64,000 bases of DNA from an uncultured Bacteriovoracaceae bacterium (GTDB taxonomy: Bacteria; Bdellovibrionota; UBA1018). The translations under genes and the position numbers were made by a program. The stretch's first letter is position 1. Each line of letters starts with the position of its first letter. The notes beneath the pieces were generated by a model. That model did no database searches and was not told where the DNA came from. It saw only the letters and a list, made by a program, of their open reading frames with translations. This document shows, one piece after another, positions 1,529 to 37,439 of the stretch. Where the stretch lies: positions 25,889-89,888 of the forward strand of contig CAYHPW010000004.1 in assembly GCA_964358645.1 (NCBI GenBank), read 5' to 3'.

Positions 1529-1538
1529 ATTTGCCCTC

Positions 1539-15734: not shown

Positions 15735-17035
15735 TTGGCCATCTCCTTCTGGGCACTGACGGACCGCTTTGCCTCTATCATCTGGAAATACGACTCAAGC
15801 CTGTTCTTGATATTTGCCGCGCTGAAATAGCGCGGATCAACAAGGTCCGACTCGATGAAGCCGCCCGCCTTGCCGGTGCGCTGCTCAAGCTCCCTCAATA
15901 TAAGCAGTTGTCCAACCGAGAATGAATTGCAGCTTTTTATCGAATTAATTAGGAATCCGTCAGCATCAAAATCTTTGATGTATTTTTCTATGATCTCTAT
16001 CCTGCTAGGCAGATTTCTGTTCGTATAACAACCAAGGCAGTAATCAGCCATCGTTTCAAACGGCCTGGACGGATCATGGCGAAAACCACGCTCATAAAGG
16101 CCGCCCACCTTGGTATAAGTCGACGACACAACGACAGCTTTCTCATCGGAGAACATCTTCCAAAATTCCCTGAAGCTTGTCCAATTAGGTGGGCCCTCCA
16201 CGACCAAGCGGAATTTCTGCTCCTTAAGCTCACCATCCGGGACGGTGGGACCCATCTTGTGCTTGATCCTGAACTCGACTTCACTTCTAAGTTCCCTGTA
16301 ATATTGCTCACACTCCGGCAGACCGCGGAACGCGCTGAAAATAGGCCCGACGTAATACACTCCGCCGAAATATGCATCAATCGGCGAAGGCTTGTGCTTG
16401 GCTGAATCCCATACCCAAACAAGATCATCCTCCGCACGTGCAGCGGACTCCAGCAAAGACTTTAGTTTTTCTTCATTGAGCTTTTTGCCGGAAATCTTCT
16501 CCATCATCGGGACAGCTGTTTCTCTTAGCTGCCTTACCACATACTGTCTCATTGAATCGGTGACTTCACCGTCACCCTGATACGGGATTTGAAGCATCAC
16601 AACAGGGCATTTGTATTCCTTCTCTAGCAGCTCGAACCACTTCATGAAAGTAAAGCAACCTGTGTAGCTGAGCAGGAGCAGATCCGGGGGAGGCAGCTTC
16701 TCTCCAGTCGGCCCGATATTGCCTTTTCTTAGCATTCCAATGTCACATTTGACGTATGTGCATACGTCTTCCGAGTGACCAAATTTTTCCGCTTCAAGTA
16801 TATAATTCCCACTAAGCTTTCGCATGCTGGATTGAAGGGCATTTATTTCAGGATGCACCGGCAGCATGTCGAAAGCCCAGATAAGCTCATTAAGGTTGCC
16901 TGGGACAAATGTATAAACAACTTTCTTCCCGTCTTCCTTCGCCCGCGCGAGCCTCCGGTAATGATCACTCAGCATCTGCTTCTGCAAAAGCATGCTGTTT
17001 TCTTTTTGCACTTCCTGTTTCATTTCGTCCCCCAC
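15731..17035 (-). CDS. bcrB: Benzoyl-CoA reductase class I subunit B-like (HGD-D family)
   Basis: 434 aa (BcrB about 49 kDa). 2-hydroxyglutaryl-CoA dehydratase D-component fold. Sits between the C-like and A-like genes. Confidence 0.7.
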   Translation of the reverse strand: MGDEMKQEVQKENSMLLQKQMLSDHYRRLARAKEDGKKVVYTFVPGNLNELIWAFDMLPVHPEINALQSSMRKLSGNYILEAEKFGHSEDVCTYVKCDIGMLRKGNIGPTGEKLPPPDLLLLSYTGCFTFMKWFELLEKEYKCPVVMLQIPYQGDGEVTDSMRQYVVRQLRETAVPMMEKISGKKLNEEKLKSLLESAARAEDDLVWVWDSAKHKPSPIDAYFGGVYYVGPIFSAFRGLPECEQYYRELRSEVEFRIKHKMGPTVPDGELKEQKFRLVVEGPPNWTSFREFWKMFSDEKAVVVSSTYTKVGGLYERGFRHDPSRPFETMADYCLGCYTNRNLPSRIEIIEKYIKDFDADGFLINSIKSCNSFSVGQLLILRELEQRTGKAGGFIESDLVDPRYFSAANIKNRLESYFQMIEAKRSVSAQKEMAK

Positions 17036-18177
17036 AGCTTGATGGAATCAGCAAACGTACCGGTCTCCTCCTTGATGACTTGTATCTGCCCGGTGTTTTC
17101 CGCGTATTTAAAACCTGTATATGGGATGTTGTGCTCCGAAAGCACCGCCTGCAACATCGGGCGCTCAAGCAATGCAGGATCACAAAAACTTGGAGCAGCA
17201 AAAACAACGCCCTCTGCTTGCCTCTCGCGCACCATTCTAAGCAGATACTGGCCCTTATCCTTGCCTTCCTCATATCTAGAAGCGGTTGAAACAGCACTCC
17301 TGATATAACTTTCCGCAAGCGCGTAGAATGGGTCACCATCCTCAGAAATATCTTTAATGAAATACCTGGAGCATAAAACCCAGTCATCATCCACGATATA
17401 GCAACCGCTGCTTTCAAGTGCTTTTATCAAATTTAAAGGCGGCTGCTCGCAAAATGCGCCAGAAACAATGACCCTGACATGATCCCGCTCTGGTCGCTTA
17501 ACTTCCTTAATGGCGCCGATATATTCATGTACAAGTTTGGTATGCTCGGATACTTCAAGAATATTCGACGCCCTCATTATGACATATGTTTCATAAGTCG
17601 TTACTTGATGAGGCAATCTCGACCTTAGCCTGTATAGCTCATCTATGGCTGCACGGTTTTCGTTATAAAGTTTTATGGAGTTTCTAAGCGCTTCATCAGT
17701 AACCGTGACGCCTGAAATGCCAGACAGGTCATCGCAAAGCCTCCTCAGCTCGGATTCATAAAATGATTTACCGGCATCATTATAGTCCTGTGGAAAATCA
17801 ATGTACTTTACGTATTTCCCTGGGAACATTACTTTCCACATCCCACTCAGGTTTCTTATCACATCACAAATAGCCGGGAACAGCATACCATCAAGCGAAT
17901 CGAGCTTACCGCAAACGCCAAGCTCGATCGTGGAGCGCGGAATCCGGCAAATATACGACTGAAAATACGCATCCCCCCTGATAATCTCGATCTCATCTCC
18001 GCCGCCCATGATGCCAACCGGCAGCATGCCAGCAGCATGGATAATTTCTCTTGGAACATAGACCGGCATATAACCAATAGCTTTTGCCGAATGTGCCTTC
18101 TTCCATTCAACTACATACTTGAAATCAAGATCGCGACAGAGTTCTTCACATCGCTCTATGATCGAACGCACGCTCAT
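17020..18177 (-). CDS. bcrC: Benzoyl-CoA reductase class I subunit C-like (HGD-D family)
   Basis: 385 aa (BcrC about 44 kDa). Motifs AIGYMPVYVPREIIHAAGMLPVG, ICRIPRSTIELGVCGK, FCDPALLERP. First gene of the four-gene set. Confidence 0.7.
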   Translation of the reverse strand: MSVRSIIERCEELCRDLDFKYVVEWKKAHSAKAIGYMPVYVPREIIHAAGMLPVGIMGGGDEIEIIRGDAYFQSYICRIPRSTIELGVCGKLDSLDGMLFPAICDVIRNLSGMWKVMFPGKYVKYIDFPQDYNDAGKSFYESELRRLCDDLSGISGVTVTDEALRNSIKLYNENRAAIDELYRLRSRLPHQVTTYETYVIMRASNILEVSEHTKLVHEYIGAIKEVKRPERDHVRVIVSGAFCEQPPLNLIKALESSGCYIVDDDWVLCSRYFIKDISEDGDPFYALAESYIRSAVSTASRYEEGKDKGQYLLRMVRERQAEGVVFAAPSFCDPALLERPMLQAVLSEHNIPYTGFKYAENTGQIQVIKEETGTFADSIKLWGTK

Positions 18178-18826
18178 CTACATTTACCTCTTGCGACATT
18201 ATACTTCCGCCTGACAACACACCTCTTGTGAACGTCTTGTAAATTTCACTTACCAGCTCATCGAGGGATCCATATTCCTTCGGCGTATACCAGCGGCAAA
18301 TCCAGTTCATCATTCCGAAAAGCAAAAAGCTCTTTCTGTGAAGTTCCATGCCGCAGGCCCTTTGCCCTGCATGCCTAGCCACAAACTCACCAACTATCTC
18401 ATGTCCCAGGGAGGCGTACTTTTTTCGCAATTCCCGTATGGCCTTACCGCGCGCCAGCCCCAGCTGCTGAGTGCTGAACAACATGACCTTCATCTCATCC
18501 ACATGCGTGGTGAAATAACTTACATGGCTGTTGATGAAGGCAAGCAACTTTTTTTCCGCTTCGTCACGCCGGCCGGATATCTCCTGCGCGCTCTCAAGCA
18601 ATGACGAAAAACCCCTCATGTTGATGAGCCACAAAAGCTCCTCCTTGTTGCGAAAATAATGATAAAGCCCAGCCAAGCTACGACCAGTTTCCTGCGCGAG
18701 ATTGCGCATGGTTGTGGCACTGTAGCCTTTTCTTGCCATTAAACGGCTTGATTTCTTAAGTATCCCATCAAGCCCTGTCTTAACGCCCGGTTTTATACCG
18801 GCGCGTGAACGTACGCGGCTAACCAT
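18146..18826 (-). CDS. TetR/AcrR-family transcriptional regulator
   Basis: 226 aa. N-terminal HTH LKKSSRLMARKGYSATTMRNLAQETGRSLAGLYHYFRNKEELL. Embedded between dch-like and bcrC-like genes. Confidence 0.8.
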   Translation of the reverse strand: MVSRVRSRAGIKPGVKTGLDGILKKSSRLMARKGYSATTMRNLAQETGRSLAGLYHYFRNKEELLWLINMRGFSSLLESAQEISGRRDEAEKKLLAFINSHVSYFTTHVDEMKVMLFSTQQLGLARGKAIRELRKKYASLGHEIVGEFVARHAGQRACGMELHRKSFLLFGMMNWICRWYTPKEYGSLDELVSEIYKTFTRGVLSGGSIMSQEVNVDERAFDHRAM

Positions 18827-18829
18827 GAC

Positions 18830-19612
18830 TCAATTACCAGTCCATTTAGGCTGACGCTTCTCCGTAAAGGCCCTGATCCCTTCAACCGCATCATGAGTGC
18901 TCATCAAATCAGCCAGATACAAGGACTCAAGTTTTGAAATCCATTGACTGTAATGATCCGCAAGTGTCATACGCGATGCTTGATTTGCTATACGCAGGGA
19001 CGAAGCACTCTTAGGCAAAATACACTTATCAATAAATGCCGCCACCGCAGCATCAAGACCACCGGTATCACAAACTTTCGTCACCAACCCTGCCTGCATA
19101 AGTTCAGCAGCACCAGCTCGCTCGCCGGTTAAAATCATCTGCTGGGACATGAATCCCCCTCCCAAAAATGGTAATAAAGCGGCAGCAACGGGCGGAAAGA
19201 CCCCAAGATGTATCTCGGGCACGGCGAACTTTGCATTTGGATCCGCGAATATGAAACCACATGCCAGCGCCAATTCAAATCCTCCACCAAGGCAAAAACC
19301 CTGCACCTGCGCAAGCGTCGGGACTTTGCAGCCTATCAGATCACCAATCATCCGGTGAAATGCTGGCAGCATTCCACCGACCTTCTCCGGCAGATGCTCT
19401 TCAACGCTGGCACCGAATGAAAAATTCTGCCCGACCGACCCTATAATTACCAGCTTGGTAGCAGCGTCCTTTTCGCTATCAGCAAGCGCAGCCTGGATCT
19501 CCGCTATCATCTTGGCAGTAAGGACATTTGACGGCGGGGAGTTGAGCAGAATTGCCTTCACCTGGCCGTCATACCGATTTTCATATTTGATTAGCTGTGA
19601 GTTCATGTTCAT
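18830..19612 (-). CDS. dch: Crotonase-family hydratase, cyclohexa-1,5-diene-1-carbonyl-CoA hydratase (Dch)-like
   Basis: 260 aa (Dch about 28 kDa). FSFGASVEEH and QGFCLGGGFELALACG crotonase motifs. Placed between oah-like and bcr genes. Confidence 0.65.
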   Translation of the reverse strand: MNMNSQLIKYENRYDGQVKAILLNSPPSNVLTAKMIAEIQAALADSEKDAATKLVIIGSVGQNFSFGASVEEHLPEKVGGMLPAFHRMIGDLIGCKVPTLAQVQGFCLGGGFELALACGFIFADPNAKFAVPEIHLGVFPPVAAALLPFLGGGFMSQQMILTGERAGAAELMQAGLVTKVCDTGGLDAAVAAFIDKCILPKSASSLRIANQASRMTLADHYSQWISKLESLYLADLMSTHDAVEGIRAFTEKRQPKWTGN

Positions 19613-19617
19613 TTGCT

Positions 19618-20739
19618 TTACAGTTTATTTTCCACGCGGCCCTTGGGGAGGATCTCGTCCACAAGCTCATCCGTCCACGGCATTGCGTTCGCAAGCGCCC
19701 TTCTCAGCTTTATGAAATCAACTTCACGGTTATCCTTCGGACCTTCATTGAAGGCACGGAAACCAGCACGCGCCTCTGTCATCATATTGAGCGCTAGCCA
19801 AGACCGATTGGTTTCGCAATTCCTCTGCCAGTGTTCCAATTTTTTCTTCCTCAGTGATTCAATGGTCTTGATCAGGCACTCAGGCATTGTCATAGCAAGA
19901 GAAAATGCAAATTTCTCAACTTCGCGATCAAGCATGCTGAGATCGACGACGCACTCTCCCGCGATCTTCGCGGCCTCTGATTTTTTCTGCCCTGTCTTGA
20001 ATGAGCCATAGCATAGATTACCCCACTCATCGTGTTCCTCGGTATGCACAAAAGGATTTAATATGAACTTGCCTTCCTTGTTTTTTAAAACCGGCACTAC
20101 CTTGTTGATTAATCCTATGGATGCGGCCTTATGGGCTGACCACGGCTCACACAGCACGCATGATTCGATGGCATGCCCGATCCCCACATATAAATGTAGA
20201 AAATCAGTTGATCCTCCATCAGGCGCCGACCCATGCTTCGGCCCCGCCTGCCCGAAACGCGCGGTATCAGCGGCAATCGAAAAATCACAGGCCATCCCGA
20301 TTTCCTGCCCGCCGCCGATCCTCATCCCGTTCACGCGGTTGATAACGGGCTTATCACACGTGAGAATCGTGGTTACCATGTCATTAAAAAGCCGCATGTA
20401 TTGCTTATATTCCTGCGGATTGCCGGCATAATATTCAGCATATTCCTTGGTATTCCCGCCGGTGCAAAATGATTTATCGCCAACAGCGGTAAAAACTACT
20501 GAAACCGCCGAACGATCACAGGAGGCCTCGCGGAAGGCCAATATTATTTCTTTAACTGCTTGGGTCGTATATGAATTAAACTGGCTTGGGTTGTTAATAA
20601 TGATCCAGTGGTTCACCAACCCTTCGATCGGCTTGCCGCTATGATCTAAGAGCGGCCGGCGCTCCACCTTGATATCTTTAAATTTGTACTCAGCAACCAG
20701 ATTGTGATCCTTTATATTGTCATGCATACTATTTGACAT
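19618..20739 (-). CDS. oah: 6-oxocyclohex-1-ene-1-carbonyl-CoA hydrolase (Oah/BamA)-like ring-cleaving crotonase
   Basis: 373 aa, an unusually long crotonase-fold protein (FCTGGNTKEYAEYY, MRIGGGQEIGMACD). Size and context match Oah/BamA. Confidence 0.65.
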   Translation of the reverse strand: MSNSMHDNIKDHNLVAEYKFKDIKVERRPLLDHSGKPIEGLVNHWIIINNPSQFNSYTTQAVKEIILAFREASCDRSAVSVVFTAVGDKSFCTGGNTKEYAEYYAGNPQEYKQYMRLFNDMVTTILTCDKPVINRVNGMRIGGGQEIGMACDFSIAADTARFGQAGPKHGSAPDGGSTDFLHLYVGIGHAIESCVLCEPWSAHKAASIGLINKVVPVLKNKEGKFILNPFVHTEEHDEWGNLCYGSFKTGQKKSEAAKIAGECVVDLSMLDREVEKFAFSLAMTMPECLIKTIESLRKKKLEHWQRNCETNRSWLALNMMTEARAGFRAFNEGPKDNREVDFIKLRRALANAMPWTDELVDEILPKGRVENKL

Positions 20740-20760
20740 TTAAGCCTCCTCCTTTTTATC

Positions 20761-21834
20761 TCAAGTTTGTGGCACCAAAACGGCTCTTTTATCAAGTCTA
20801 TGTGCATGAGCCATTTCTAAAACTTCATTTATTGAATCAAGTGGATATGACTTCACATTGTCGGCGACCTTGATCCCGCCGTCCAATGTAGCCTTCACAA
20901 CGTTTGTGTAATACTGCGGCTTGCAGCCCCAGTTACCAAAAACATCAGCATCAAAAGCCATGATATTGCTTAAACGAACGGGTAGCTTTTCCATCGTGAA
21001 TCCAACAATCCCCAAGGTCCCGGCAAATGTAAGGAGCGAGAACCCAAGACTTTGCCCGGCAGATGACCCGCTGGTTTCAAAGATTCTCCATTGGAAACGC
21101 GGCAGCCCTGAGTCAGCCACAATTCGCCGTATCGAATCTTTTATGTCCTTTTCCTGCATGCCTGCCGTGCTGATCACATAATCAGCGCCCTGTGATAGCG
21201 CCCACTGAAGTTTATTCTCATCTATATCCAAAGCTATTACTTTGGCACCGGCGTTTTTTGCATGCTGAACCATGTAAATACCGATACCACCGACTCCGAT
21301 GACAATAGCCAGCTCCCCTGATTTAAGACCGCTCCTTATCAATGCCTGGTACGGAGTAGTCACGGCATCCGCGATCACCGAAAGCTGCCAAAGTTCATTG
21401 CCTTTGAGATCCTGCGGTAGCTCACAGACATACTTTCCTGGCACTACGATATGGCTTGCAAACCCTCCATGAAAATCATTCCCAGGCATTTTTTGCTTCT
21501 GGCAGATATTATCTCTCCCAGCCCTGCAAAGTTCACATTCACCGCACGGAAGCACGGCTGGTATGATGACTTTTTTCCCTTCAATTAAACTGAGCCCAGC
21601 CGCGGCGCCAGAAGCTACAATGGCACCGCTAATTTCGTGCCCCAAGACGAGTGGCAGGGGATGTTTTGTCTTCACCGACCCGTTCAAAAATGTGATATCA
21701 GTATGGCAAAGCCCGCATCCTGCAACCTTTACGGCGATGTGGCCCGGCGGCAGATCTTCTATGACAAAATCCTTTTTTTCAAGTTTCTGGCCGACTTCCC
21801 GCATGAAATAACCATAGGCATTTATCTTATTCAT
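20761..21834 (-). CDS. had: Zn-dependent alcohol dehydrogenase, 6-hydroxycyclohex-1-ene-1-carbonyl-CoA dehydrogenase (Had)-like
   Basis: 357 aa. GCGLCHTDI and GHEISG zinc-ADH motifs, GVGGIGIYMVQ Rossmann. Context with oah/dch. Confidence 0.7.
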   Translation of the reverse strand: MNKINAYGYFMREVGQKLEKKDFVIEDLPPGHIAVKVAGCGLCHTDITFLNGSVKTKHPLPLVLGHEISGAIVASGAAAGLSLIEGKKVIIPAVLPCGECELCRAGRDNICQKQKMPGNDFHGGFASHIVVPGKYVCELPQDLKGNELWQLSVIADAVTTPYQALIRSGLKSGELAIVIGVGGIGIYMVQHAKNAGAKVIALDIDENKLQWALSQGADYVISTAGMQEKDIKDSIRRIVADSGLPRFQWRIFETSGSSAGQSLGFSLLTFAGTLGIVGFTMEKLPVRLSNIMAFDADVFGNWGCKPQYYTNVVKATLDGGIKVADNVKSYPLDSINEVLEMAHAHRLDKRAVLVPQT

Positions 21835-21849
21835 AAATCACCTTCATAA

Positions 21850-21873
21850 CCCCCCCCGAACAAACGTTCGTTC
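21850..21873. promoter_or_regulatory. Divergent promoter region element: C8 homopolymer followed by imperfect inverted repeat GAACAAACGTTCGTTC
   Basis: Lies in the 87-bp spacer between divergent had-like and gcdH genes. Half-sites GAACAAAC and GAACGAAC form a candidate regulator operator. Confidence 0.3.
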
Positions 21874-21921
21874 GATTTTTGATATTCAAACCAAAGGCAC
21901 ATGTCGAGTTAAAAATTTCTC

Positions 21922-23166
21922 ATGCTGAGAAAAAAACTATTGTCTATGGCGCGAGGATTTATAATACTCCACTACCGCATGAAAACAACAACACATAAGT
22001 CTGCTGAGCCACGCGAGCCGATTTTAGATGTATACGAATTAGATGACGACTGGTCAGAGGAGCAAAAAACTTTGATCAGACAAGTCAGGCGATTTGTTGA
22101 TCAGGAAATACTGCCAATCATGCGCGAGCATCACACGCAAGGCACATTCCCAGTCCAATTACTTCCAGGCATCGCGCGTCTTGGTATCTTGGAAGCCGTC
22201 GCCTCCGGCGACATAGACCCGATCACATACGGGCTTGCAATGCGGGAACTCGAGCGTGGAGGTTCGGAAATCCGGAGCCTTGCCAGCGTCCAAGGCTCGC
22301 TCGTGATGTCGGCAATCTCGATGTTTGGTTCCGCTGAACAAAAAAAAATCTGGCTTGAGCCGCTCGGTAAATTGGAATCAATCGGTTGTTTCGGCCTTAC
22401 TGAATCAGACTTCGGCAGCAACCCATCAGGTCTGCGCACCCGCGCCGAAGAGCACCAAAACTCTTACCGTATAACAGGCAGCAAGTGCTGGATAACCAAC
22501 GGCACGATGGCGGATGTCGCGATAATCTGGGCCCACTGCAACAACAAAAGCATAAGAGGCTTTCTTGTTGAAACAGATCGCAAAGGCTTCGAAGCAAGAG
22601 CCATAAAAGGCAAATGGAGCTTTCGCGCGAGTGACACAGCCGAGCTGTTCCTTGACAATGTGGAGGTGCCAAAATCAGCTCTTCTTCCCGAATCAACATC
22701 AGTAGGCAGCGCGCTTGCTTGCCTCAATCAGGCCAGATATGGCATCGCATGGGGGGTTATTGGAGCCGCTGCCGCGTGTATCGACGAAACCAGGCGCCAC
22801 CTTTTGGGGCGTCCGCAATTTGACGGAAAACCGCTCGCGTCCCACCAGCTCATTCAAAGCAAGCTTGCATGGATGGCGACCGACCTTACAGCCATGCAGC
22901 TTATAGCCAAGCGCCTCGGGGAATTAAAGCGCGACGGACGCGAACACTCGCACCATGTTTCGTTGGCAAAAATGAACAATTGCCGCAAAGCACTTGAAAT
23001 ATCGCGATGCTGCCGCGAACTGCTCGGGGCGAGCGGGATCCATGACGAGCACCACGTGGGCAGGCACATGGTCAACCTTGAAACCGTCGTGACTTACGAA
23101 GGCACAGAACATATCCACTCGTTGGTACTCGGCCACTACATGACGGGGATACGGGCATTTTCCTGA
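21922..23166 (+). CDS. gcdH: Glutaryl-CoA dehydrogenase (acyl-CoA dehydrogenase family)
   Basis: 414 aa. ACAD fold with GcdH-like C-terminus YEGTEHIHSLVLGHYMTGIRAFS, CFGLTESDFGSN, CWITNG. A later start at 21979 (MKTTTH) is possible. Confidence 0.75.
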   Translation: MLRKKLLSMARGFIILHYRMKTTTHKSAEPREPILDVYELDDDWSEEQKTLIRQVRRFVDQEILPIMREHHTQGTFPVQLLPGIARLGILEAVASGDIDPITYGLAMRELERGGSEIRSLASVQGSLVMSAISMFGSAEQKKIWLEPLGKLESIGCFGLTESDFGSNPSGLRTRAEEHQNSYRITGSKCWITNGTMADVAIIWAHCNNKSIRGFLVETDRKGFEARAIKGKWSFRASDTAELFLDNVEVPKSALLPESTSVGSALACLNQARYGIAWGVIGAAAACIDETRRHLLGRPQFDGKPLASHQLIQSKLAWMATDLTAMQLIAKRLGELKRDGREHSHHVSLAKMNNCRKALEISRCCRELLGASGIHDEHHVGRHMVNLETVVTYEGTEHIHSLVLGHYMTGIRAFS

Positions 23167-23208
23167 TAGAAATCCCAGCCTCTATTCGTTAAAATATTAA
23201 AGAAGGGA

Positions 23209-23643
23209 GTGGGATTGATACATCACTTAGAAAAAGATGCGGATCTTGCGCTTTTTAGCGGTGAAATACAACTTCTGGTTGCGGCACTTTACCGTAACGA
23301 AAGACCGCTTTACGGCTTGGCCGGCCTACTTGACTGGAGATTCCGCGGGCTGATCTCTGATTACATACGTTCTGGTTTTTTTTCAGGGGAAGCAGGTGAA
23401 TGCATCTATCTACCACTGATTCACAACGACTTGTTTTACCACATCATGCTGTTAGGAGTTGGCGACACTGACCGCCCCGGAACCAGGAAGATGGTCACTC
23501 AACATCCTCTACAGATCTTGCATAAAAATCTGGTATCACTTCGCAACAGCCGTGTCGCGGTTTCCCGCACTGACTTTGGGAATGCCAATGACAATTTCTT
23601 TTCAGAAAACCTGCCGGAGGTACCTTTATGGATCGTTCATTGA
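23209..23643 (+). CDS. Hypothetical protein (first gene of overlapping 5-gene operon)
   Basis: 144 aa with a GTG/TTG start downstream of an AGAAGGGAG RBS. No recognizable domain. Its stop overlaps the next ORF. Confidence 0.5.
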   Translation: MGLIHHLEKDADLALFSGEIQLLVAALYRNERPLYGLAGLLDWRFRGLISDYIRSGFFSGEAGECIYLPLIHNDLFYHIMLLGVGDTDRPGTRKMVTQHPLQILHKNLVSLRNSRVAVSRTDFGNANDNFFSENLPEVPLWIVH

Positions 23644-24029
23644 AGGAAGCGCTTTCAATTTTATCCTCGCTAGCCGACATCACGAAACAAAGCCTTGCAG
23701 GCATGAAGCATAAGTTCATACCTAAAAAACCGCTTATAGCGGCTCCCACAGCCGCTCCGACTCCACGTACAACCGCCACACTGACCTCACGCACAGAATA
23801 CAAGCCAGCCCTAAGCGACAAAATGGTTGTCGAAGCTTTACTTGAACTTAAGCAAAAATTAGGTGACAAACCCCCGCCTGAGCCTTCGAATTTTACACCA
23901 GTATCCCCCCCACGCGTAGAAGCAACGATTAAACATAATCCGCTATCACGCGGGACCGCGCGCAAAGGCGATGAGACAGCCTTCCCTATTTACAGATCCA
24001 CCAAAAAAGATAATGAAGACAAAATATAA
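23628..24029 (+). CDS. Hypothetical Pro/Thr-rich protein
   Basis: 133 aa with a low-complexity PTAAPTPRTTATLT...PPPEPSNFTPVSPP segment. Overlaps its neighbours on both sides. Confidence 0.45.
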   Translation: MDRSLKEALSILSSLADITKQSLAGMKHKFIPKKPLIAAPTAAPTPRTTATLTSRTEYKPALSDKMVVEALLELKQKLGDKPPPEPSNFTPVSPPRVEATIKHNPLSRGTARKGDETAFPIYRSTKKDNEDKI

Positions 24030-24651
24030 GGATGCCTTTTTACGCTGGAAGGCACTGGGCAGAAGGCACGATGCATCCGTACTGAAACTTGCCATACTCA
24101 GGAACATGAGCCGGGACGTCCACGCGCAAAAATCAAGGGACCTTTCAAGCAGCTCGCCGGGCGAGACAAGTGAAAATGACGCCGTTCTTTTGGAATTAGA
24201 ACGTATTCTTGATAATTTAAGAAGCTCCACGCTTGATAGCAATGATCTCGAAACCTTGCTTAAAAATACCGCACCACCACTCGCTGAGCGCACGCTCCCA
24301 AAAGGGCTTCTCGCGATTATTCCATCAGAAAAACTGCTACGTCGCGACAGGGTCTGGGAAGCCGCCATCATCGCGGAAGGACTGAATTACCATTGGCACA
24401 TATGGACACTTTCCGCGTCAATCCCGGTCGCTGAAGTTGAAAATTGGAACAACATCCTTGCTGATATTTTGTGGCCCGGCGGTATCCTTTTATATGTTGA
24501 AAGCCAAGACGACGGAACAAACGGCAAAACATGGCATGGCAAGTGGATCACGCTGCTTGCTCCTGAAATAGATCCATTAAAATTCCAGGCAAAATTGCAA
24601 ACATTTGATTCGAAACCACCGGTGTGGGAACTTATATATCCAGCGACATGA
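24013..24651 (+). CDS. Hypothetical protein
   Basis: About 212 aa from ATG 24013 (MKTKYKDAF...); the track ORF starts at 24 aa upstream at 23971. No TM segment and no known domain. Confidence 0.45.
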   Translation: MKTKYKDAFLRWKALGRRHDASVLKLAILRNMSRDVHAQKSRDLSSSSPGETSENDAVLLELERILDNLRSSTLDSNDLETLLKNTAPPLAERTLPKGLLAIIPSEKLLRRDRVWEAAIIAEGLNYHWHIWTLSASIPVAEVENWNNILADILWPGGILLYVESQDDGTNGKTWHGKWITLLAPEIDPLKFQAKLQTFDSKPPVWELIYPAT

Positions 24652-25154
24652 GACTAGTTAGATTTTTAATCCATGTGCTTGAGGCGCATGCAGAAACACT
24701 TAAAAGGCTTGCTGAAATCATCGGCGAAGATGCGCTGCTAAACGCGCTGGAAAACATGAACGCTCCCAACCCACAAAATCCTGGAAAAATCACCACTCTG
24801 GAAACCAACACGCCAACAGACGCGCCACCATACGATGAGTTGCAATCAACCGTGGCTGACTTTAAACTTTCTCCAGCGTTAGAAGACCACCTATGGTCCT
24901 ACCCATATTATCGGATGATAATCGAAAGCATGGCTGATCTTAATATGCAGCTTGATACTGGCCACAGTGAGTCACAAAACTCAGCGCGACAAATGGTTGA
25001 AGAAGCGTTTGATTATTCCCGCATTTGGATCAAATCATTAAAACCGCCCTTGGACTTCCCCGGTAAAGATACGGTTTCACAGGCTGCATGGCTGCAGTTT
25101 AGGAGTACGATACTGCGCAGACTAGGCTACCGACCACTTTCTCCTACTGCTTGA
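24648..25154 (+). CDS. Hypothetical protein
   Basis: About 168 aa. ATGA-type coupling with the upstream stop (gacATGAgac). Sequence MRLVRFLIHVLEAHAETLKRL... Confidence 0.45.
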   Translation: MRLVRFLIHVLEAHAETLKRLAEIIGEDALLNALENMNAPNPQNPGKITTLETNTPTDAPPYDELQSTVADFKLSPALEDHLWSYPYYRMIIESMADLNMQLDTGHSESQNSARQMVEEAFDYSRIWIKSLKPPLDFPGKDTVSQAAWLQFRSTILRRLGYRPLSPTA

Positions 25155-25189
25155 ACATAGCATCCCAGTTATATAATATCCCACTTTGT

Positions 25190-26074
25190 ATGCACTGGAG
25201 CGCTGCCATTTCAACAAATCGAAAATTCCCACGGTCATTTGTGTTTGCATTGATTGCAGCGCTTACACTGCATATATTTTTCCTCCTGCAAAAGTTACAT
25301 TGGACGACATCATCGCCGCCACGCGTTCCGCCACACATTCCGATGGAACAAATCGACATGAAAAAAATCGAAGCCATCAAGCAACGCTGGAAGCAACTCG
25401 TACTCTCAAAAGACAAGACCCCTTCTGAACAGACAGCCCCAAAAGATGCTAAATACATGTCAGACAAAAATAGAAGTGTGGAAAAAGAACAGCGTGCAAG
25501 AAATACATCCATACTGCCGGGCTCCACCACCCAAAGCCAGCCCATTGAAAAATCTGCCGATAGACCCACTAAACAATTGAATCTCGGCAAGTTCGGCATC
25601 CCATTGCGCATGAAACAAGTCGCGCCATACATGCAGTATGCGAAGGGAACACAAGGGGATCAGTACATCCACGCACCTGAGCTACCGGAGGGGGGCGAAA
25701 ACCTGCTCAACACGCAGGAGTCGGTCTATTACTCGTTTTATGCAAGAATGTATGAGGCTATCGCGCCTGTTTGGCAAAGCCGGGTCAGGGAAATTTCTTA
25801 TCAATATCGGCTCAAATCCGGTGAATACAACACTGTTGTCGACATAGTGCTTGATAGAAAAGGCAATGTTACAGCCATACGACTGCTTGAGAGCTCAGGT
25901 GTATACGAGCTTGACTATGCGGTTGAAAACTCGTGGTTCAAGATAGCAAGATTCCCCAACCCGCCACATGGGCTACTGGACAATAACGACGAAGTCCACA
26001 CCGGCTGGACTTTCAGGGTTGATATCGGCAACAACGCCGGGTTTCAATTCCTCCCGCCGGAGAGAAATTATTGA
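25190..26074 (+). CDS. TonB C-terminal-domain-like membrane-anchored protein
   Basis: N-terminal TM helix FVFALIAALTLHIFFLL, then a hydrophilic spacer and a C-terminal segment YSFYARMYEAIAPVWQ...YNTVVDIVLDRKGNVTAIRLLESSGVYELDYAVENSW...FPNPP resembling the TonB_C fold. The track gives a TTG start at 25151. Confidence 0.5.
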   Translation: MHWSAAISTNRKFPRSFVFALIAALTLHIFFLLQKLHWTTSSPPRVPPHIPMEQIDMKKIEAIKQRWKQLVLSKDKTPSEQTAPKDAKYMSDKNRSVEKEQRARNTSILPGSTTQSQPIEKSADRPTKQLNLGKFGIPLRMKQVAPYMQYAKGTQGDQYIHAPELPEGGENLLNTQESVYYSFYARMYEAIAPVWQSRVREISYQYRLKSGEYNTVVDIVLDRKGNVTAIRLLESSGVYELDYAVENSWFKIARFPNPPHGLLDNNDEVHTGWTFRVDIGNNAGFQFLPPERNY

Positions 26075-26079
26075 GAGAG

Positions 26080-26880
26080 TCACATCGCCTGCCAGGCTAG
26101 TACGACCGCGACAACAATAAGCCATGCGATAAGAATCCACTGCACATCGGGTCTTTTCGTAAAAGCTGACAGCGCTTCCATGACTGACCGCTGTGAAGGG
26201 GCCTTGTGTAAATAACCCCTCTTGCAAACGCTGGACAGATCTTTCAAGAAACTCTCATCACTCGGCTGCGGGATCAGGGTTTCAACAGCAAAGTACACTT
26301 CACGCGCTAGAGCAAGCCCCCTTCTACATGAGTCACACGCCATAAGATGATTCTGCAAAAATATCCGTTCCGTGCCGTTTACGATTTCGTCATCAAGGAA
26401 TCTCTGTGTCCATGGTTTAGCGGGATCATACGAAGGACAGTGCGGCCCGCCCGAACCAGCACCTACTGGATACGATACACGCATCGCTGAAAACGCAAGG
26501 CGCGTCCTGGCGGACCAGGCGACTTCTTCAAGCCTGAGGGACATAGCCTCATTTCCGGCTGCATGTAAAATGCGGGAGAGGCGTGAATACGACCACTTCC
26601 CGAAATGTAGCGCAATCAATATGAAGCGCTCTTCCGCGGACAAGCGGAAAAACGAATGAGTATTCAACGAAGACCGCGCTGCTTTGGCACTTATGGAATC
26701 ACCTTCCCTGACGGCACGCTTAAGCAACGCAACCGCCGCACGTTCGACTGCGCGATCAGGTTCCAAGTCCAGTAAAGAAACTGCTGCCAGCGTCTCGGCC
26801 GTTGTATGCCTTGAGTCTTCCGGCTTTGGCCAGATACCGTTCCCAATAACTGAAAATGTTTTAAGGTCTTCCGTTCTCAC
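26080..26880 (-). CDS. Membrane-anchored zf-HC2 anti-sigma-factor-like protein with N-terminal sigma-70 region-4-like HTH
   Basis: 266 aa with a GTG start. HLMACDSCRRGL zinc-finger (H-x3-C-x2-C) anti-sigma motif and a C-terminal TM helix VQWILIAWLIVVAVVLAW. The N-terminal segment LSAEERFILIALHFGKWSYSRLSRIL resembles sigma region 4. No ECF sigma gene is adjacent. Confidence 0.5.
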   Translation of the reverse strand: MRTEDLKTFSVIGNGIWPKPEDSRHTTAETLAAVSLLDLEPDRAVERAAVALLKRAVREGDSISAKAARSSLNTHSFFRLSAEERFILIALHFGKWSYSRLSRILHAAGNEAMSLRLEEVAWSARTRLAFSAMRVSYPVGAGSGGPHCPSYDPAKPWTQRFLDDEIVNGTERIFLQNHLMACDSCRRGLALAREVYFAVETLIPQPSDESFLKDLSSVCKRGYLHKAPSQRSVMEALSAFTKRPDVQWILIAWLIVVAVVLAWQAM

Positions 26881-27003
26881 TTGCTATGTATAATCTTATG
26901 ACACCTGCGCGTAACGTAAATAGATAAAGTGAAAAAAATCTATAACCAGCTTTCATGTGGTTTCTTGTTTTATTTCAACTAGTTTTAGCGCCTGGCGTCA
27001 TTA

Positions 27004-27019
27004 TGGCCCCACCCTTGCA
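27004..27019 (+). promoter_or_regulatory. Candidate sigma-54 -24/-12 element TGGCCCCACCCTTGCA
   Basis: The GG (27005-6) and GC (27017-18) are separated by exactly the canonical 12 nt (consensus TGGCACG-N4-TTGCA). It lies only about 15 nt upstream of the lipoprotein ATG at 27034, so it could be coincidental or imply a near-leaderless transcript. Confidence 0.25.
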
Positions 27020-27033
27020 CCACCAGACAACAA

Positions 27034-27708
27034 ATGAAAACCAATAAATTTAACATTTTTTATGTATTTTTCGCACTTAACCTCATGCTGCTCGTAAGCG
27101 GCTGTGGTGGCTACAACGACTCAGCCAAAAGAAACCTTGCATCTACAGACGAAGCCACGGGAATGATGCTGCCTGATTCGACGGACTTGGGTGACATATC
27201 CAACCCCGGCTATAAAGCACCTGTAAAAAATTCTGCTGAAGAAATAAAAGGGGTTCCACCGCTTGAATTCCTGGTAAGCGGGGTGGGTTACACTACATAT
27301 TCATTAACGGTGAAAGCAAACAAAACGATTAAAATTAAATTTTCACCAGGCGTCCAGACTGAAAAAATACAAAACACAGGCTATTCTCCTCAATATTCAA
27401 TAATGGGTATTTATATTTCAGTAGGCAACGAAACCAAACCAACAGAAATGCTTAAAAATGGCCTCAATGGCCCAAATGGCGGAGACGCCGAAGTAAGCAG
27501 CGTTCTTGACTTCTCAAATGCATTTACAAAGACATGCTCAAAAACCGAGGCCACCTGCCGCCAGGATGTCAAGATAACCATAAGCAAACCCAACAACGAT
27601 TACGTATGCCTGAACTCAGGGTGGTACTGTCCTTGGACAAGGGTGCAGGAAGGCCACCCATGGAATGGGACACTCACAGTTCAGACGGACGACACCGACC
27701 CGATTTAA
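27034..27708 (+). CDS. Lipoprotein, hypothetical
   Basis: 224 aa. Signal peptide plus lipobox LLVSGCGG. C-terminal motif YCPWTRVQEGHPWNGTLTVQTD is paralogous to the next gene. Confidence 0.6.
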   Translation: MKTNKFNIFYVFFALNLMLLVSGCGGYNDSAKRNLASTDEATGMMLPDSTDLGDISNPGYKAPVKNSAEEIKGVPPLEFLVSGVGYTTYSLTVKANKTIKIKFSPGVQTEKIQNTGYSPQYSIMGIYISVGNETKPTEMLKNGLNGPNGGDAEVSSVLDFSNAFTKTCSKTEATCRQDVKITISKPNNDYVCLNSGWYCPWTRVQEGHPWNGTLTVQTDDTDPI

Positions 27709-27745
27709 TGCTGTAAAGAATTTTTACACTTGTAGGATATAAAAT

Positions 27746-28522
27746 ATGAAACACGATTCGAACTTAAATAAAAAGGCCAATAGAAACAGCAAGATATCCC
27801 ATACCCATACTGGCTCCCATAGTGGCTCAATGATTGCACCATCAAAGCTTATTATGTTGGCTGGTAGAGACACTAAACAAACAAAGACCATGGCAATAGG
27901 ATTCCTAATGGCGATTTTCATGGCCAGCATTGCCTCTTGCGGAAAGCAGTCATACCGGGAATCACCACAAAACAACAATGTCTCAAGTACCGAAGGCTCC
28001 TCTAATGGCTCAGTTGACAACACGGACAATACCACGTCGAACTTGGAACCAGACCTCAATCCACCACTGACATTTAGTTTTAATATTAAAGGCTCAGGCG
28101 GTTACACCACACCCGCCATCGATACTGACAATGTTCTTAAAGTCAGAATTATATCAGGCCCGAGCGAAAAAATCAGCATACCGGGTTATTCGAACTTCAC
28201 CGCAAATTACGGATGTGTCAGTTATAAGATAACAGTCGCTGGCCGCAGCACGGTAACAAGCATACTCTCCGTGAGCGGATTTAACGGCTTATGCAAGGAG
28301 AGTTCGGACAACCAGGTGATAGATTTTTCTAACAGGCTCGGACAGGGACATAATTCAGTTGAAATCTCGGTGTCAGAAGCAAGATATGATTTTTACTGCC
28401 AGCTTTACATGGCTGGCTGGGTATGGGGGGACATGAATATGTTCTGCCCACTAAGAACAGTTTACCAGAATCACACCGTCACCGGCTCGCTTGAAATACA
28501 AGTGAACGGCACGTCTTTATAA
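27746..28522 (+). CDS. Lipoprotein, hypothetical (paralog of 27034-27708)
   Basis: 258 aa. Lipobox IASCGK after an internal Met (alternative start 27890); the AGGA RBS precedes 27746. C-terminus FCPLRTVYQNHTVTGSLEIQVNG parallels the neighbour. Confidence 0.55.
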   Translation: MKHDSNLNKKANRNSKISHTHTGSHSGSMIAPSKLIMLAGRDTKQTKTMAIGFLMAIFMASIASCGKQSYRESPQNNNVSSTEGSSNGSVDNTDNTTSNLEPDLNPPLTFSFNIKGSGGYTTPAIDTDNVLKVRIISGPSEKISIPGYSNFTANYGCVSYKITVAGRSTVTSILSVSGFNGLCKESSDNQVIDFSNRLGQGHNSVEISVSEARYDFYCQLYMAGWVWGDMNMFCPLRTVYQNHTVTGSLEIQVNGTSL

Positions 28523-28561
28523 ACGATAAACTAAAAAGCAAGCTTGACTCAACTGCACAAA

Positions 28562-28999
28562 CTAATCACGGCTGACAACGCTTATATTCGCAAATTCTTG
28601 AACGACTCCCGGCATACTCTCGACAACTACACGATAAGACCCAGCCTTCAAAAACCCTAGATCAACCGCCATAAGATAAGGAATAAGCGACATCGTGCAC
28701 ATCTGATACGAGTTAAAATCAGCAGAATTTGAAATCAAAATCTCCTTATTCTCCTCGTCTACAACGGCACTAACCGTTACATTGCTATAGCAACCGTTCG
28801 GTAACATTCCGCCAATCTGTATTCTAACAGATTCCTTGTCTGTATAAACACTGTGACAAAAAACATTGTGAGGCATTATATTTAAACGCTTGGCACCTTG
28901 TTCTTGAGTCATCTCAAGCGCGAAAGCAGTAACACACATATTTGGAACCATCAGCAAACAGGCAACCGCAGCCAATACAACAAATAGCTTGTTCATCAT
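28562..28999 (-). CDS. Small secreted hypothetical protein
   Basis: 145 aa with an N-terminal signal peptide MMNKLFVVLAAVACLLMVPNMCVTAFA. No known domain. Confidence 0.5.
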   Translation of the reverse strand: MMNKLFVVLAAVACLLMVPNMCVTAFALEMTQEQGAKRLNIMPHNVFCHSVYTDKESVRIQIGGMLPNGCYSNVTVSAVVDEENKEILISNSADFNSYQMCTMSLIPYLMAVDLGFLKAGSYRVVVESMPGVVQEFANISVVSRD

Positions 29000-29149
29000 A
29001 TCAATTCTCCTCTCTGGTCTCCTCTCTGAAACAAGAAGGCATACTACATTTGGAATGTTTGCTAAAAGTGAGGATATTTTGTTATTTTCTTAATAATTCT
29101 TTTGTGTCATATGGCGCAATACCCAAAGACCTGGTAGCTTTTATCAATT

Positions 29150-31138
29150 ATGGATCAGCAGAAAAAACCAAACACCTTGCGATACACATTATGTGAAATG
29201 GCCGTGTCAGACAAAGACCGCTGCTCATTTAAAGACAACTCCGATTTCACCAGCGCGATATTAAATGCCGCCCTGGACGCCATCGTGACAATAAATACTG
29301 ATGGGATAATCGAAACAGTGAATCCGGCATTCGAAAAAATATTCGGTTATTCATCAGATGAAGTACTCGGCAAGAGCGTAAATATGCTCATGCCAGAGCC
29401 CCACGCCCGTGAACACGATCAATACATCAAAAGATATCTCCACACGGGCGAAAGACGTATAATCGGCATTGGCCGCGAAACCGAGGCAATAAGAAAGGAC
29501 GGCAAGAAAATCCCGGTTGAATTGGCTATCAACGAGTTCACCTGGGGCGGCACAACCAGATTCGTGGGATTTGTGCGTGACCTGACAGTAGCAATAGAGG
29601 CACGCATGGCGATCGACAAGGCTAACCAGGCAAAAAGCGAATTCCTGGCCAATATGAGCCATGAAATCAGAACACCCATGAATGCCGTGATCGGCCTAAC
29701 CGACCTACTTTTAGAAACTCCATTAACACGAGAACAAAGGGAGTATCTCAGCATAATTAAATCTTCAGGTGATACCCTGCTCTCGATTGTTAACGACATT
29801 TTGGATTATTCCAAAATAGAAGCAGGCAAAATGACCATTGAGCATGTGGGGTTTGATCTCTTACAGGCAATAAAACACACCATAGCCCTTGTTACTGAAA
29901 ACGCGCGCACAAATAGCATCATTCTCGAGTTGCAAATCACGGACTACCCCGGCATCGTCAACGGTGACCCAGGGAAATTACGCCAAGTGTTGCTTAACCT
30001 ATTAAGCAATGCGGTTAAATTCACGAAAAATGGGAAAATCACCGTCGAAGTTTCAACCAAGCCCATAAACGACAACCGCATTGAAACAACAATCCAAGTT
30101 CATGATACCGGCATTGGGTTATCAACCGAGCAGCAGGCCAGGCTCTTCGCCCCATTCACGCAAGCAGACAGCACTACGACAAGAAGGTTCGGCGGGACAG
30201 GGCTTGGGCTTTCTATTTCCAAACGACTTATTGAAATGATGGGAGGCGAAATCTGGGTAGAGAGCCAGGAGAACAAAGGCTCAACGTTTGGATTTACAAT
30301 CCCAGTAGAACTATCAAAACTGGCAAAACTGGAAACAAAAGCTGCCGATACAGCAACTCCATCAGACACTATAATAAGCGCTGACACGCAGCCAATCCCA
30401 TTACACGTGCTCGTGGCAGAAGACAACATAGTCAATCAAAAAGTAATCATGCACATGCTAGAAAAACTTGGCTGTAAGGTCACGGCTGTTCCTGACGGCC
30501 AAAAAGCGGTCGCCGCCATGCAGGAAAATGATTTTGATCTGGTCTTAATGGATTGCCAGATGCCAATAATGGACGGCTATGAAGCAACAAAGCAGATCAG
30601 GTCTTTAGACGCAAGCAAGCGAGGAATCAAAATCATAGCCCTGACAGCAAATGCCTTTATCGAGGAAAAAGAAAAATGCATTATGTCGGGAATGGATGAG
30701 CACCTATCAAAGCCGATCGAATTTCAAAAATTGTCTCAAACTCTGCGCACCTTGGTTAAAAACACCGTGACAAAATCAACGATCGAAGCTGATTCATTAA
30801 CGCAAAGGCTTGAGACGCTTTTAAAAACAATAGGTGAACAAGCAATCAATGATATCATAGCCGCCTTCCTGCAAGACACACCCAAGTACATTACACTGCT
30901 GGAAAATTCCATTGCAAAAAAAGATTACCACTCACTTAAAAAAACGGCTCATTCATTGAAAGGAAGCTTTGGCAACATAGGTGCCTTAAATCTCATGCAC
31001 GACTGCGAAGCCCTTGAGGTACTCACCGGGTCTACGGCAAACTCAGGAGATCTCGACAAATGCGCCGTCTTGATAAATAAAATCAAATGTGATTATGCTG
31101 AAGTTTCAAAACTGCTTACTAACAAGATAAAGGTCTGA
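29150..31138 (+). CDS. Hybrid sensor histidine kinase (PAS-HisKA-HATPase-REC-Hpt)
   Basis: 662 aa. PAS (AALDAIVTINTDGIIETVNPAFEKIFGY), H-box SHEIRTPMNAVIGLTDLL, G-box GTGLGLSISKRL, receiver (VLVAEDN...DLVLMDCQMPIMDGYE), and Hpt HSLKGSFGNIGA. Confidence 0.9.
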   Translation: MDQQKKPNTLRYTLCEMAVSDKDRCSFKDNSDFTSAILNAALDAIVTINTDGIIETVNPAFEKIFGYSSDEVLGKSVNMLMPEPHAREHDQYIKRYLHTGERRIIGIGRETEAIRKDGKKIPVELAINEFTWGGTTRFVGFVRDLTVAIEARMAIDKANQAKSEFLANMSHEIRTPMNAVIGLTDLLLETPLTREQREYLSIIKSSGDTLLSIVNDILDYSKIEAGKMTIEHVGFDLLQAIKHTIALVTENARTNSIILELQITDYPGIVNGDPGKLRQVLLNLLSNAVKFTKNGKITVEVSTKPINDNRIETTIQVHDTGIGLSTEQQARLFAPFTQADSTTTRRFGGTGLGLSISKRLIEMMGGEIWVESQENKGSTFGFTIPVELSKLAKLETKAADTATPSDTIISADTQPIPLHVLVAEDNIVNQKVIMHMLEKLGCKVTAVPDGQKAVAAMQENDFDLVLMDCQMPIMDGYEATKQIRSLDASKRGIKIIALTANAFIEEKEKCIMSGMDEHLSKPIEFQKLSQTLRTLVKNTVTKSTIEADSLTQRLETLLKTIGEQAINDIIAAFLQDTPKYITLLENSIAKKDYHSLKKTAHSLKGSFGNIGALNLMHDCEALEVLTGSTANSGDLDKCAVLINKIKCDYAEVSKLLTNKIKV

Positions 31139-31140
31139 CG

Positions 31141-31821
31141 GTGGCAAATATTCTTCTAATAGAAGACAGCACTGACATACAAAAAACTATAAAGGCCATT
31201 CTTAATACGCACACATTATTCTCGGCATCCACCCTGAAAGAAGCAGAAAGACAGCTATCAGAACATGATTACGATCTTGTCTTGCTGGATCTGTCGCTCC
31301 CGGACGGAAACGGTATGGAGTTTTTAAGCCATATAAAAAGAACATCTGACATAACTGTCCCATTTATTATAATGACAGCGAGTTCAGCGGTTACAGATAA
31401 GGTTTTAGGATTTTCACTAGGGGTAGAGGACTATATCACAAAACCTTTTGACCCACTGGAGCTAAGGGCGCGTGTTGAGGCGCGGCTTTCACGCAGAGCT
31501 GAGAATCGTACGAAACAGAATCGCTTCACGGCAGGAGACCTACAGTTTGATCTGATAACACAATTCGTAACAGTATCCGATAGTGACCAGAAAAAACTCG
31601 ACCTGACCCCTTTTGAATTCAAACTTCTGCTTTGTTTCGCCAGGCATCGCAACCATGTTCTCAGCAGAGAGCAATTGCTGGAACTGGTCTGGACCAGCTC
31701 ATTACACGTTTCTGACCGTGTGATCGACACACATGTAAGCCATCTACGCAAGAAACTGTCAGAGTCCGAATGTTCAATAGAGCCTGTGTATGGCGCGGGC
31801 TACCGCTTCATTGTAAAATAA
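31141..31821 (+). CDS. OmpR-family response regulator (REC plus winged-helix)
   Basis: 226 aa with a GTG start. ILLIEDS...DLVLLDLSLPDGNGMEF receiver and a C-terminal trans_reg_C (LSREQLLELVW...GAGYRF). Confidence 0.85.
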   Translation: MANILLIEDSTDIQKTIKAILNTHTLFSASTLKEAERQLSEHDYDLVLLDLSLPDGNGMEFLSHIKRTSDITVPFIIMTASSAVTDKVLGFSLGVEDYITKPFDPLELRARVEARLSRRAENRTKQNRFTAGDLQFDLITQFVTVSDSDQKKLDLTPFEFKLLLCFARHRNHVLSREQLLELVWTSSLHVSDRVIDTHVSHLRKKLSESECSIEPVYGAGYRFIVK

Positions 31822-33679: not shown

Positions 33680-33737
33680 ATACTGGATATATTACTAATA
33701 AATTAAAATATATATCAGCTTTATTGAGTTGCAAGCG

Positions 33738-34310: not shown

Positions 34311-34311
34311 C

Positions 34312-36166: not shown

Positions 36167-36299
36167 CTCAAACTACTGATCGGCCGGGGCATTCGAAACT
36201 TAATGTGTCAAAATATTGCCGGTATGCCGATTGATTTTTGCCTAGAAAACTCCATATCAGCGACTTAATATACTTCTTATATTCAAGGAGGAACCACTG

Positions 36300-37418: not shown

Positions 37419-37439
37419 GTTTTTGCGCGTTCAAGCAAA

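Follow-up and report, generated by a model that had tools for sequence, protein, structure and literature searches.

The plus strand of a 64,000-nucleotide (nt) stretch of contig CAYHPW010000004.1 from an uncultured Bacteriovoracaceae bacterium (hereafter the window) carries five successive open reading frames (ORFs) at 23209-26074, designated O1 to O5. We conclude that O1-O4 and O5 are very probably two independent, vertically inherited modules that were joined by a lineage-specific rearrangement, in an arrangement seen only here. An initial annotation of this DNA had taken the five genes for one new envelope-energised or signalling system and had named the Desulfobacterota as the group in which to look for it; the organism belongs to the Bdellovibrionota, and as a set the five genes fail the conservation test that the annotation itself had proposed. 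O5 followed O4 at none of the ~24 loci that carry the O1-O4 cassette, and O1-O4 were found upstream of O5 at none of the ~40 loci that carry O5, where the usual upstream gene, here called U484, is different from O4. On one 1.68-Mb contig a cassette locus (L014) and an O5 locus (L001) are both present, ~120 kb apart. Because O1-O4 and O5 have separate neighbourhoods, the synteny breakpoint can be placed exactly between O4 and O5.

The distribution of the cassette was obtained by scanning species-representative genomes with an O1 alignment, which gave 79 loci. Some 24 of these are from Bdellovibrionota, Oligoflexia or Bacteriovoracaceae and have O1-O4 in the same order, with O2 identified in 20 of them by a hidden Markov model (HMM), O3 in 18 and O4 in 23. 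O3 is missing from L010, L014, L015, L025 and a FG-2 locus that was fetched twice (L005/L018), and L026 lacks O2, which leaves O1 and O4 as the core of the cassette and O2 and O3 as its accessory members. The usual context in Bdellovibrionota is glyA-nrdR-nusB-O1-O2-O3-O4, then a variable slot, and then a convergent polA and an RDD protein, with nusB directly upstream of the cassette in ~20 of 22 informative loci. The variable slot is empty or contains an exported M19 dipeptidase (L006, L027), a secreted protein of 622 amino acids (aa) (L005, L015, L018) or an epimerase (L004, L009, L026, L029); in the window organism it is the TonB-like O5 that occupies this slot. The M19 gene, whose exported product bears a lipobox or signal peptide, overlaps the O4 stop codon (L006 10043-11224, L027 9006-10235), and in two separate clusters of O4 homologues (P0164 and P0207) the O4 domain is joined to an M19 dipeptidase via a membrane helix. 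At ~20 of 24 loci O2 starts exactly 16 nt before the O1 stop codon, with AAAGGAG embedded in the K-G-V codons of O1. The window cassette has all four genes in order together with this junction and its Shine-Dalgarno (SD) sequence, and nusB, nrdR, glyA and polA are all absent from the 64 kb. That the cassette was relocated intact supports O1-O4 as a unit of its own.

Another ~55 of the 79 loci are from Myxococcota and contain the O1-like gene only, placed directly after ribBA-ribH-nusB in ~50 of them (in L044 the gap to nusB is 6 nt); no relatives of O2-O4 were found in Myxococcota, even by HMM searches run with --max. These myxococcal genes (L031-L085, e.g. L044 6947-7462) encode stand-alone Peptidase_M17_N proteins of ~172 aa in ~50 genomes. 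The gene that follows often encodes a ~275-aa protein with a weak Nudix-like match (E = 0.009, below the cut-off), and the placement of a macro-like domain beside a Nudix-like protein hints at nucleotide-derivative metabolism. Upstream of the cassette in L014, an Oligoflexia locus, genes that were recognised by eye in ORF translations as resembling those of mobile elements are present at 62-3406 (an IS607-like recombinase with a TnpB-like ORF, and a group II intron reverse transcriptase).

Relatives of O5, collected from 3 genome loci and 39 metagenome loci, lie in a conserved order of their own: histidine kinase, divergent metG, U484 (an unknown protein of ~480-540 aa) with or without a methyltransferase, O5, a convergent gene of ~265 aa here called AS, one or two lipoproteins (LP1/LP2) and a putative aminopeptidase of family PF10023. 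In most loci that extend far enough, AS is the next gene after O5 and runs on the opposite strand, and LP1/LP2 homologues occupy the same position in L003, L086, L087, L090, L092, L101-L103, L107, L109, L120 and L122. The window retains only the downstream half of this neighbourhood: AS (26080-26880, minus strand), LP1 and LP2 (27034-27708 and 27746-28522, plus strand) and, identified by Pfam on the minus strand at 32633-39229, the PF10023 protein (32633-33679), an outer-membrane beta-barrel, a FecR-like protein and argS. No U484, methyltransferase or metG gene was found in the 64-kb window. The region 3′ of O5 is syntenic with the O5 loci up to argS, and the same order is observed in L001 and L003. 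Because the O5-argS block is syntenic phylum-wide, adjacency alone is no proof that its genes cooperate.

All five plus-strand ORFs are genuine genes and the minus-strand alternatives are not, which agrees with the strand choice and the five consecutive ORFs of the initial annotation. O1 (23215-23643; 142 aa, with an alternative GTG start at 23209), O2 (23628-24029; 133 aa, at the same position in the 20 loci mentioned above), O3 (24013-24651; 212 aa), O4 (24648-25154; 168 aa) and O5 (from TTG 25151 or ATG 25190 to 26074) each gave homologues in sequence searches, and the NCBI Prokaryotic Genome Annotation Pipeline (PGAP) calls all five on the plus strand of contig JBBTDV010000034.1. Two of the minus-strand ORFs, at 23495-23965 and 23946-24371, have zero homologues, and the third, at 25144-25632, gave only weak antisense shadows of the O5 matches and no independent homologues. 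The assignment is settled because all five plus-strand ORFs have relatives and the minus-strand ORFs have none. When codon usage was scored as log-odds, with 37 long window ORFs as the training set, O1, O3, O4 and O5 each came out best in their own frame, whereas for O2 one antisense frame did at least as well as its own (0.135 versus 0.123); the three minus-strand ORFs have codon scores no better than those of the plus frames.

The overlapping junctions that had been described are present between the first four genes, but not unconditionally between the fourth and the fifth. O1 and O2 overlap by 16 nt, and within this coupling junction (23616-23643) a GGAGG at 23616-23620, embedded in O1 codons, is positioned 7 nt ahead of the O2 ATG at 23628. 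O2 and O3 overlap by 17 nt with the O3 start at ATG 24013, the codon that PGAP assigns and that coincides exactly with the public gene call. O3 and O4 share an ATGA, with the O4 ATG at 24648, and in most of the 149 O4 homologue clusters residue 1 is aligned to residue 1 of the protein that begins there. O4 and O5 overlap, by TTGA, only if O5 starts at TTG 25151; with the start at ATG 25190 there is a gap of 35 nt. A perfect TATAAT is located between the O4 stop codon and ATG 25190 (25172-25177, 12 nt ahead of the ATG), with TTGAAC 15 nt upstream of it. These hexamers might give O5 a near-leaderless transcript of its own, and one such hexamer is within chance expectation. Promoter and terminator scans gave counts at chance level, with no terminator-like hairpin between O4 and O5.

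Profile comparison identifies O1 as a homologue of the PepA (M17 leucyl aminopeptidase) N-terminal domain that forms a protein by itself. A word-index search returned 21 O1 homologues of 40-51% identity, many with a precomputed PF02789 assignment, and the O1 family profile matched two PepA N-domains in the Protein Data Bank (PDB), 3h8e (E = 1.4e-5, O1 residues 24-137 against 17-134) and 1gyt (E = 3e-4). The window protein alone scores 20.8 bits against Peptidase_M17_N, under the cut-off of 23.4, and its myxococcal relatives pass with 47.6-54.8 bits. The view that none of the first four proteins has a recognizable domain therefore fails, at the family level, for O1. The O1 family has an invariant motif, ERPLxGLAGLLDWRFxG. 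The Peptidase_M17 catalytic domain with its two-metal site was not found in O1-O4, and O1 stops after the N-domain; with 142 aa and the catalytic domain absent, O1 is therefore not an aminopeptidase. The idea that O1 might be DNA polymerase III chi was dropped when an hhalign comparison with an E. coli HolC sequence gave nothing (E = 0.39).

The other three cassette proteins belong to no Pfam, NCBIfam, PHROG or PADLOC family, and a hydropathy scan detected no hydrophobic or transmembrane segment in any of O1-O4, as had been stated. O2 appears largely disordered, to judge from its pattern of conserved pieces (an N-terminal segment, T-x-EY-x-x-AL-x-D-x-x-[VI]-x-ALL and a C-terminal PG-x4-P-[IV]-L-R) separated by Pro-rich linkers. 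With 11% Pro and 10% Thr it is only moderately the Pro/Thr-rich protein of the initial annotation, and it is without a segment of ~45 residues near the N-terminus (LA..LLS.S..FEP...) that is found in nearly all other O2 proteins. The AlphaFold2 model of O3 (15 sequences; pLDDT 89, pTM 0.87) combines a helical domain at the N-terminus with a ferredoxin/ACT-like beta-alpha-beta-beta-alpha-beta domain at the C-terminus. Its best Foldseek match in the PDB has E = 9e-3, and its neighbours are generic ferredoxin/ACT/PII-like folds with E of ~0.01-0.07. The model of O4, made from an 81-sequence alignment, is all-helical with 7 helices (pLDDT 90, pTM 0.87), and Foldseek returned no PDB chain better than E = 0.37. 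The 149 O4 homologue clusters, of ~165-185 aa, come from an exhaustive HMMER search. Neither the O3 nor the O4 family has a PDB sequence match; going by the predicted structures, O4 is without a solved structural relative and O3 has generic ferredoxin-like ones only.

Several other identities were considered for these proteins and rejected. Truncated haemoglobins head the profile-PDB list of O4, with an insignificant match (E = 0.01 over only 38 residues), and globins head its Foldseek list with E of at least 0.37 and TM of 0.2-0.3; no His is conserved in the family. A comparison of O3 and O4 as possible paralogues was negative. For a defence or phage origin there was no PADLOC match, and the sole PHROG match (O4, function unassigned) was insignificant (E = 0.017). 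A literature search found no description of the O1-O4 cassette.

O5 is best read from its sequence as a bitopic inner-membrane protein of the TonB/TolA type, and its earlier description as membrane-anchored and of TonB_C type is borne out. A single predicted transmembrane helix (residues 29-47, 25235-25291; KD19 hydropathy 2.14) is kept across the family alignment, and Pfam TonB_2 (PF13103) matches residues 196-273 with 29.5 bits against a cut-off of 22. PF03544 (18.9 bits against 24.6) stays below its cut-off and TIGR01352 (26.4 against 27.1) just below. The family profile matches the HasB C-terminal domain 2m2k (E = 1.4e-3), and an hhalign comparison with residues 184-213 of E. coli TonB is in register with E = 0.079; from the Pfam, NCBIfam and HasB alignments the C-terminal TonB_2/TonB_C-type domain would extend over residues ~196-289 (25736-26017). 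The 128 homologues, of ~310 aa and 38-50% identity, align with query coverage of up to 96% including the transmembrane region, and nearly all are from Bdellovibrionota or Oligoflexia.

An alignment of 40 O5 sequences has a common layout, consisting of a variable N-terminal tail, the membrane helix, a strand-like motif followed by a conserved segment, a variable Pro/Gln-rich linker and the C-terminal domain. His41 is invariant in 39 of the 39 family members that have the helix, and at position -4, Ala is found in 29 of these proteins and Ser or Thr in another 7. The strand-like motif, P-[RP]-V-E-[VI]-x-Q-[IV]-D-P, lies 10-15 residues past the helix and precedes KLEAIRxQW...SDRNIRVEKEQRA. It has the pattern hydrophobic-polar-hydrophobic-polar-polar-hydrophobic-polar, compared with hydrophobic-polar-hydrophobic-polar-hydrophobic-hydrophobic-polar in the D-box (PMC10907165), and the window copy, IPMEQIDM, is less regular. 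PGAP starts O5 at Met70 (238 aa), which is probably wrong, since this start drops 56-69 residues with the helix and the D-box-like motif. No MotA_ExbB (PF01618) or ExbD (PF02472) protein was detected among the ~39 window proteins scanned (10.9-51.4 kb), as the initial annotation had it, or within ±8 kb of the O5 relatives in L001 and L003. Bdellovibrio genomes are described as having several TonB-like/Agl motor clusters, with four given (PMC2797640).

These observations suggest how the present arrangement might have arisen. A rearrangement in the window lineage would have set the four-gene module, which elsewhere in Bdellovibrionota forms the far end of the glyA-nrdR-nusB cluster, beside O5. 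The translationally coupled, soluble cytoplasmic proteins O1-O4 would have been moved as one block. Because the overlaps are conserved and translation is presumably coupled, we infer that O1-O4 assemble in fixed proportions into one complex, in which O1 would contribute a PepA-N/macro-like alpha/beta domain, O2 a disordered tether with motifs, O3 a helical and a ferredoxin-like domain and O4 a helical bundle. O5 would be a periplasmic force transducer powered by an ExbBD/TolQR/Agl-type motor whose genes lie at another place in the genome, and it belongs with the downstream AS, LP1/LP2, PF10023 protein and outer-membrane barrel rather than with O1-O4.

How well this two-module interpretation stands depends on the alternatives, and several observations weigh against it. 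O4 and O5 are separated by at most 35 nt with no terminator-like hairpin, so that co-transcription and a lineage-specific functional link are possible. The gene after O4 is exported elsewhere too (the M19 dipeptidase in L006 and L027, the secreted 622-aa protein in L005 and L015), and a loose rule of a cytoplasmic cassette with an exported fifth gene is conceivable. Translational coupling is the single line of evidence that points to a complex of O1-O4, the link to peptidases consists of 2 of 149 clusters with fusions and 2-3 of ~23 adjacencies, and in the O5 family the Ser (-4), Leu (+7) and Ser (+11) of the SHLS motif (defined in PMC12204202) are not conserved. Some of the same facts would favour a single functional operon for a new envelope-energised or signalling system, in which O1-O4 would be cytoplasmic partners of O5: the five ORFs follow one another on the same strand, overlapping or at most 35 nt apart, and terminator signals between O4 and O5 do not exceed chance; an exported or membrane protein follows O4 in several other arrangements; and in the P0164 and P0207 fusions a membrane helix links O4 to an exported enzyme. 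However, the five-gene arrangement occurs only in the window organism, the two modules are ~120 kb apart in one genome, and it is U484 instead of O4 that precedes O5 in the relatives, which makes a single operon very unlikely. An assembly chimera at the O4/O5 junction is less probable still, to the point of being nearly negligible. The source is a metagenome-assembled genome (MAG) and the breakpoint falls inside a gap of at most 35 nt, but window positions 21257-30651, from ADH to the histidine kinase and across the junction, are 100% identical to NCBI contig JBBTDV010000034.1 (a Bdellovibrionota MAG), and a chimeric join that leaves both reading frames intact would be unlikely. The Logan assembly of run ERR3858133 independently shows ACD-O1-O2-O3-O4, although it stops short of O5.

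The functions of the two modules allow further alternatives. O5 shares its bitopic topology and TonB_C-type domain with GltG/GltJ-type TonB_C proteins of the Agl-Glt gliding machine, and Bdellovibrio has four TonB-like/agl clusters (PMC2797640). Yet neither the L001 and L003 gene tables (±8 kb) nor the window contain agl, glt or motor genes, and the O5 neighbourhood (metG, AS, lipoproteins, PF10023, argS) is a housekeeping-type block; we regard a Glt-type O5 as very unlikely. For O1-O4, the homology of O1 to the M17 N-domain and the fusion or adjacency of O4 to the exported M19 dipeptidase lead us to propose, tentatively, an adaptor or regulatory complex that works with peptidases at the inner membrane face. 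Alternatively, the cassette might have a NusB-linked role in RNA or transcription, for instance by assisting rRNA antitermination; this reading ranks slightly below the peptidase lead, and we consider it rather unlikely. It would fit the position of O1 directly after nusB in ~20 of 22 Bdellovibrionota and ~50 Myxococcota loci, with only 6 nt between them in L044. The N-domain of E. coli PepA takes part in DNA binding, which also counts for this possibility. On the other hand, the ribH-nusB pairing illustrates that conserved order near nusB need not mean a common function, the Myxococcota are without O2-O4, domain searches of O1-O4 detected no nucleic-acid-binding domain, and the window cassette is found apart from nusB, where it works or has at any rate persisted. 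Taking the separate-module interpretation further, O1-O4 could quite possibly, if a little short of an even chance, be an undescribed stoichiometric cytoplasmic complex across Bdellovibrionota, built around a detached PepA-N-like domain and with its own function, which might be to link cytoplasmic events to the exported peptidases or envelope proteins in the slot after O4; its linkage to nusB would then predate the split from Myxococcota.

Further features of the window and of related loci were recorded. AS has a sigma-region-4-like helix-turn-helix (FFRLxPEERFxLxALHxGRWSYxRLARIL), a zinc anti-sigma motif H-x3-C-x2-C (CPEY...HLMACDSCR) and a C-terminal tail anchor, with weak matches to zf-HC2 (17.4 bits, cut-off 22.2) and RsiW (E = 0.034). 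An AS homologue is present at L026 10273-11085 (MAG KLAP30), 1.5 kb downstream of an O1-O3-O4 cassette and without O5, which is the only other case with parts of both modules close together. LP1 and LP2 are two related lipoproteins with lipoboxes LVSGC and IASCG and no Pfam family match. Within the O5-argS block, a hybrid PAS-HisKA-HATPase-REC-Hpt kinase and an OmpR-type regulator (29150-31821, plus strand), accompanied by a 145-aa gene (28562-28999), look like a local insertion. A catabolic island at 10944-23166 encodes two BcrAD/BadFG-type ATPases and two HGD-D subunits (benzoyl-CoA-reductase or 2-hydroxyacyl-CoA-dehydratase type), along with a CoA ligase, two enoyl-CoA hydratases, a TetR protein, a Zn-ADH and an acyl-CoA dehydrogenase, which is unusual for a phylum known mainly for predators. 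A Moco (molybdenum/tungsten cofactor) riboswitch at 57311-57452 on the minus strand (78.3 bits, gathering cut-off 36) is located upstream of the minus-strand gene ending at 57319.

For further work, the result separates two subjects that had been treated as one. The association of the cassette of unknowns ending in O4 with the TonB-like O5 is an accident of one genome's rearrangement and is not to be pursued as an envelope-energised system: O5 is an ordinary TonB/TolA-type anchor of a known kind, and O1-O4 is an uncharacterised conserved cassette. The conserved neighbours of O5 are downstream, outside 23209-26074, and the public O5 annotation, which begins at Met70, cuts off the membrane helix and the region of motor contact. 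O1-O4, as a clean, phylum-wide and translationally coupled cassette, is a target for the study of core Bdellovibrionota biology, including that of non-predatory and magnetotactic carriers.

Comparison with known systems places each of these elements near a described relative and at some distance from it. Like conserved housekeeping synteny of the ribH-nusB type, the cassette is vertically inherited and has a fixed place beside nusB across the phylum, but its O2, O3 and O4 belong to no known family. O1 resembles the N-domain of PepA/M17 (PF02789, macro-like fold), to which its profile aligns nearly full length (3h8e, 1gyt) and whose Pfam cut-off is passed by the O1-type members of Myxococcota (48-55 bits). 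It differs in being a stand-alone protein of ~140 aa without the M17 catalytic domain, in having an invariant motif of its own (GLAGLLDWRF), and in being encoded after nusB and coupled to three proteins without a family. AS shares with the zinc anti-sigma factors RsiW and RsrA the H-x3-C-x2-C motif with an upstream Cys and a predicted membrane anchor; in AS, however, the anchor is at the extreme C-terminus and would leave almost no periplasmic part, the N-terminal half resembles sigma region 4, and there is no adjacent sigma gene.

O5 itself is closest to TonB, TolA and HasB (PF03544, PF13103, PF06519). It has in common with them the single N-terminal helix, in which a His is invariant, the variable linker rich in Pro and Gln, and a TonB_2 domain that passes the Pfam cut-off at the C-terminus. 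Right after the helix is a short motif between prolines, possibly beta-prone, which we compare with the TonB D-box QPISVTMVTPAD. O5 is encoded outside any tol-pal operon, and no exbBD or tolQR genes are adjacent to it here or in the related loci examined. It is also without the conserved Ser, Leu and Ser of the SHLS motif, with Ala at position -4. What O5 has in addition to the known members of this group is the strongly conserved membrane-proximal segment KLEAIRxQW...SDRNIRVEKEQRA.

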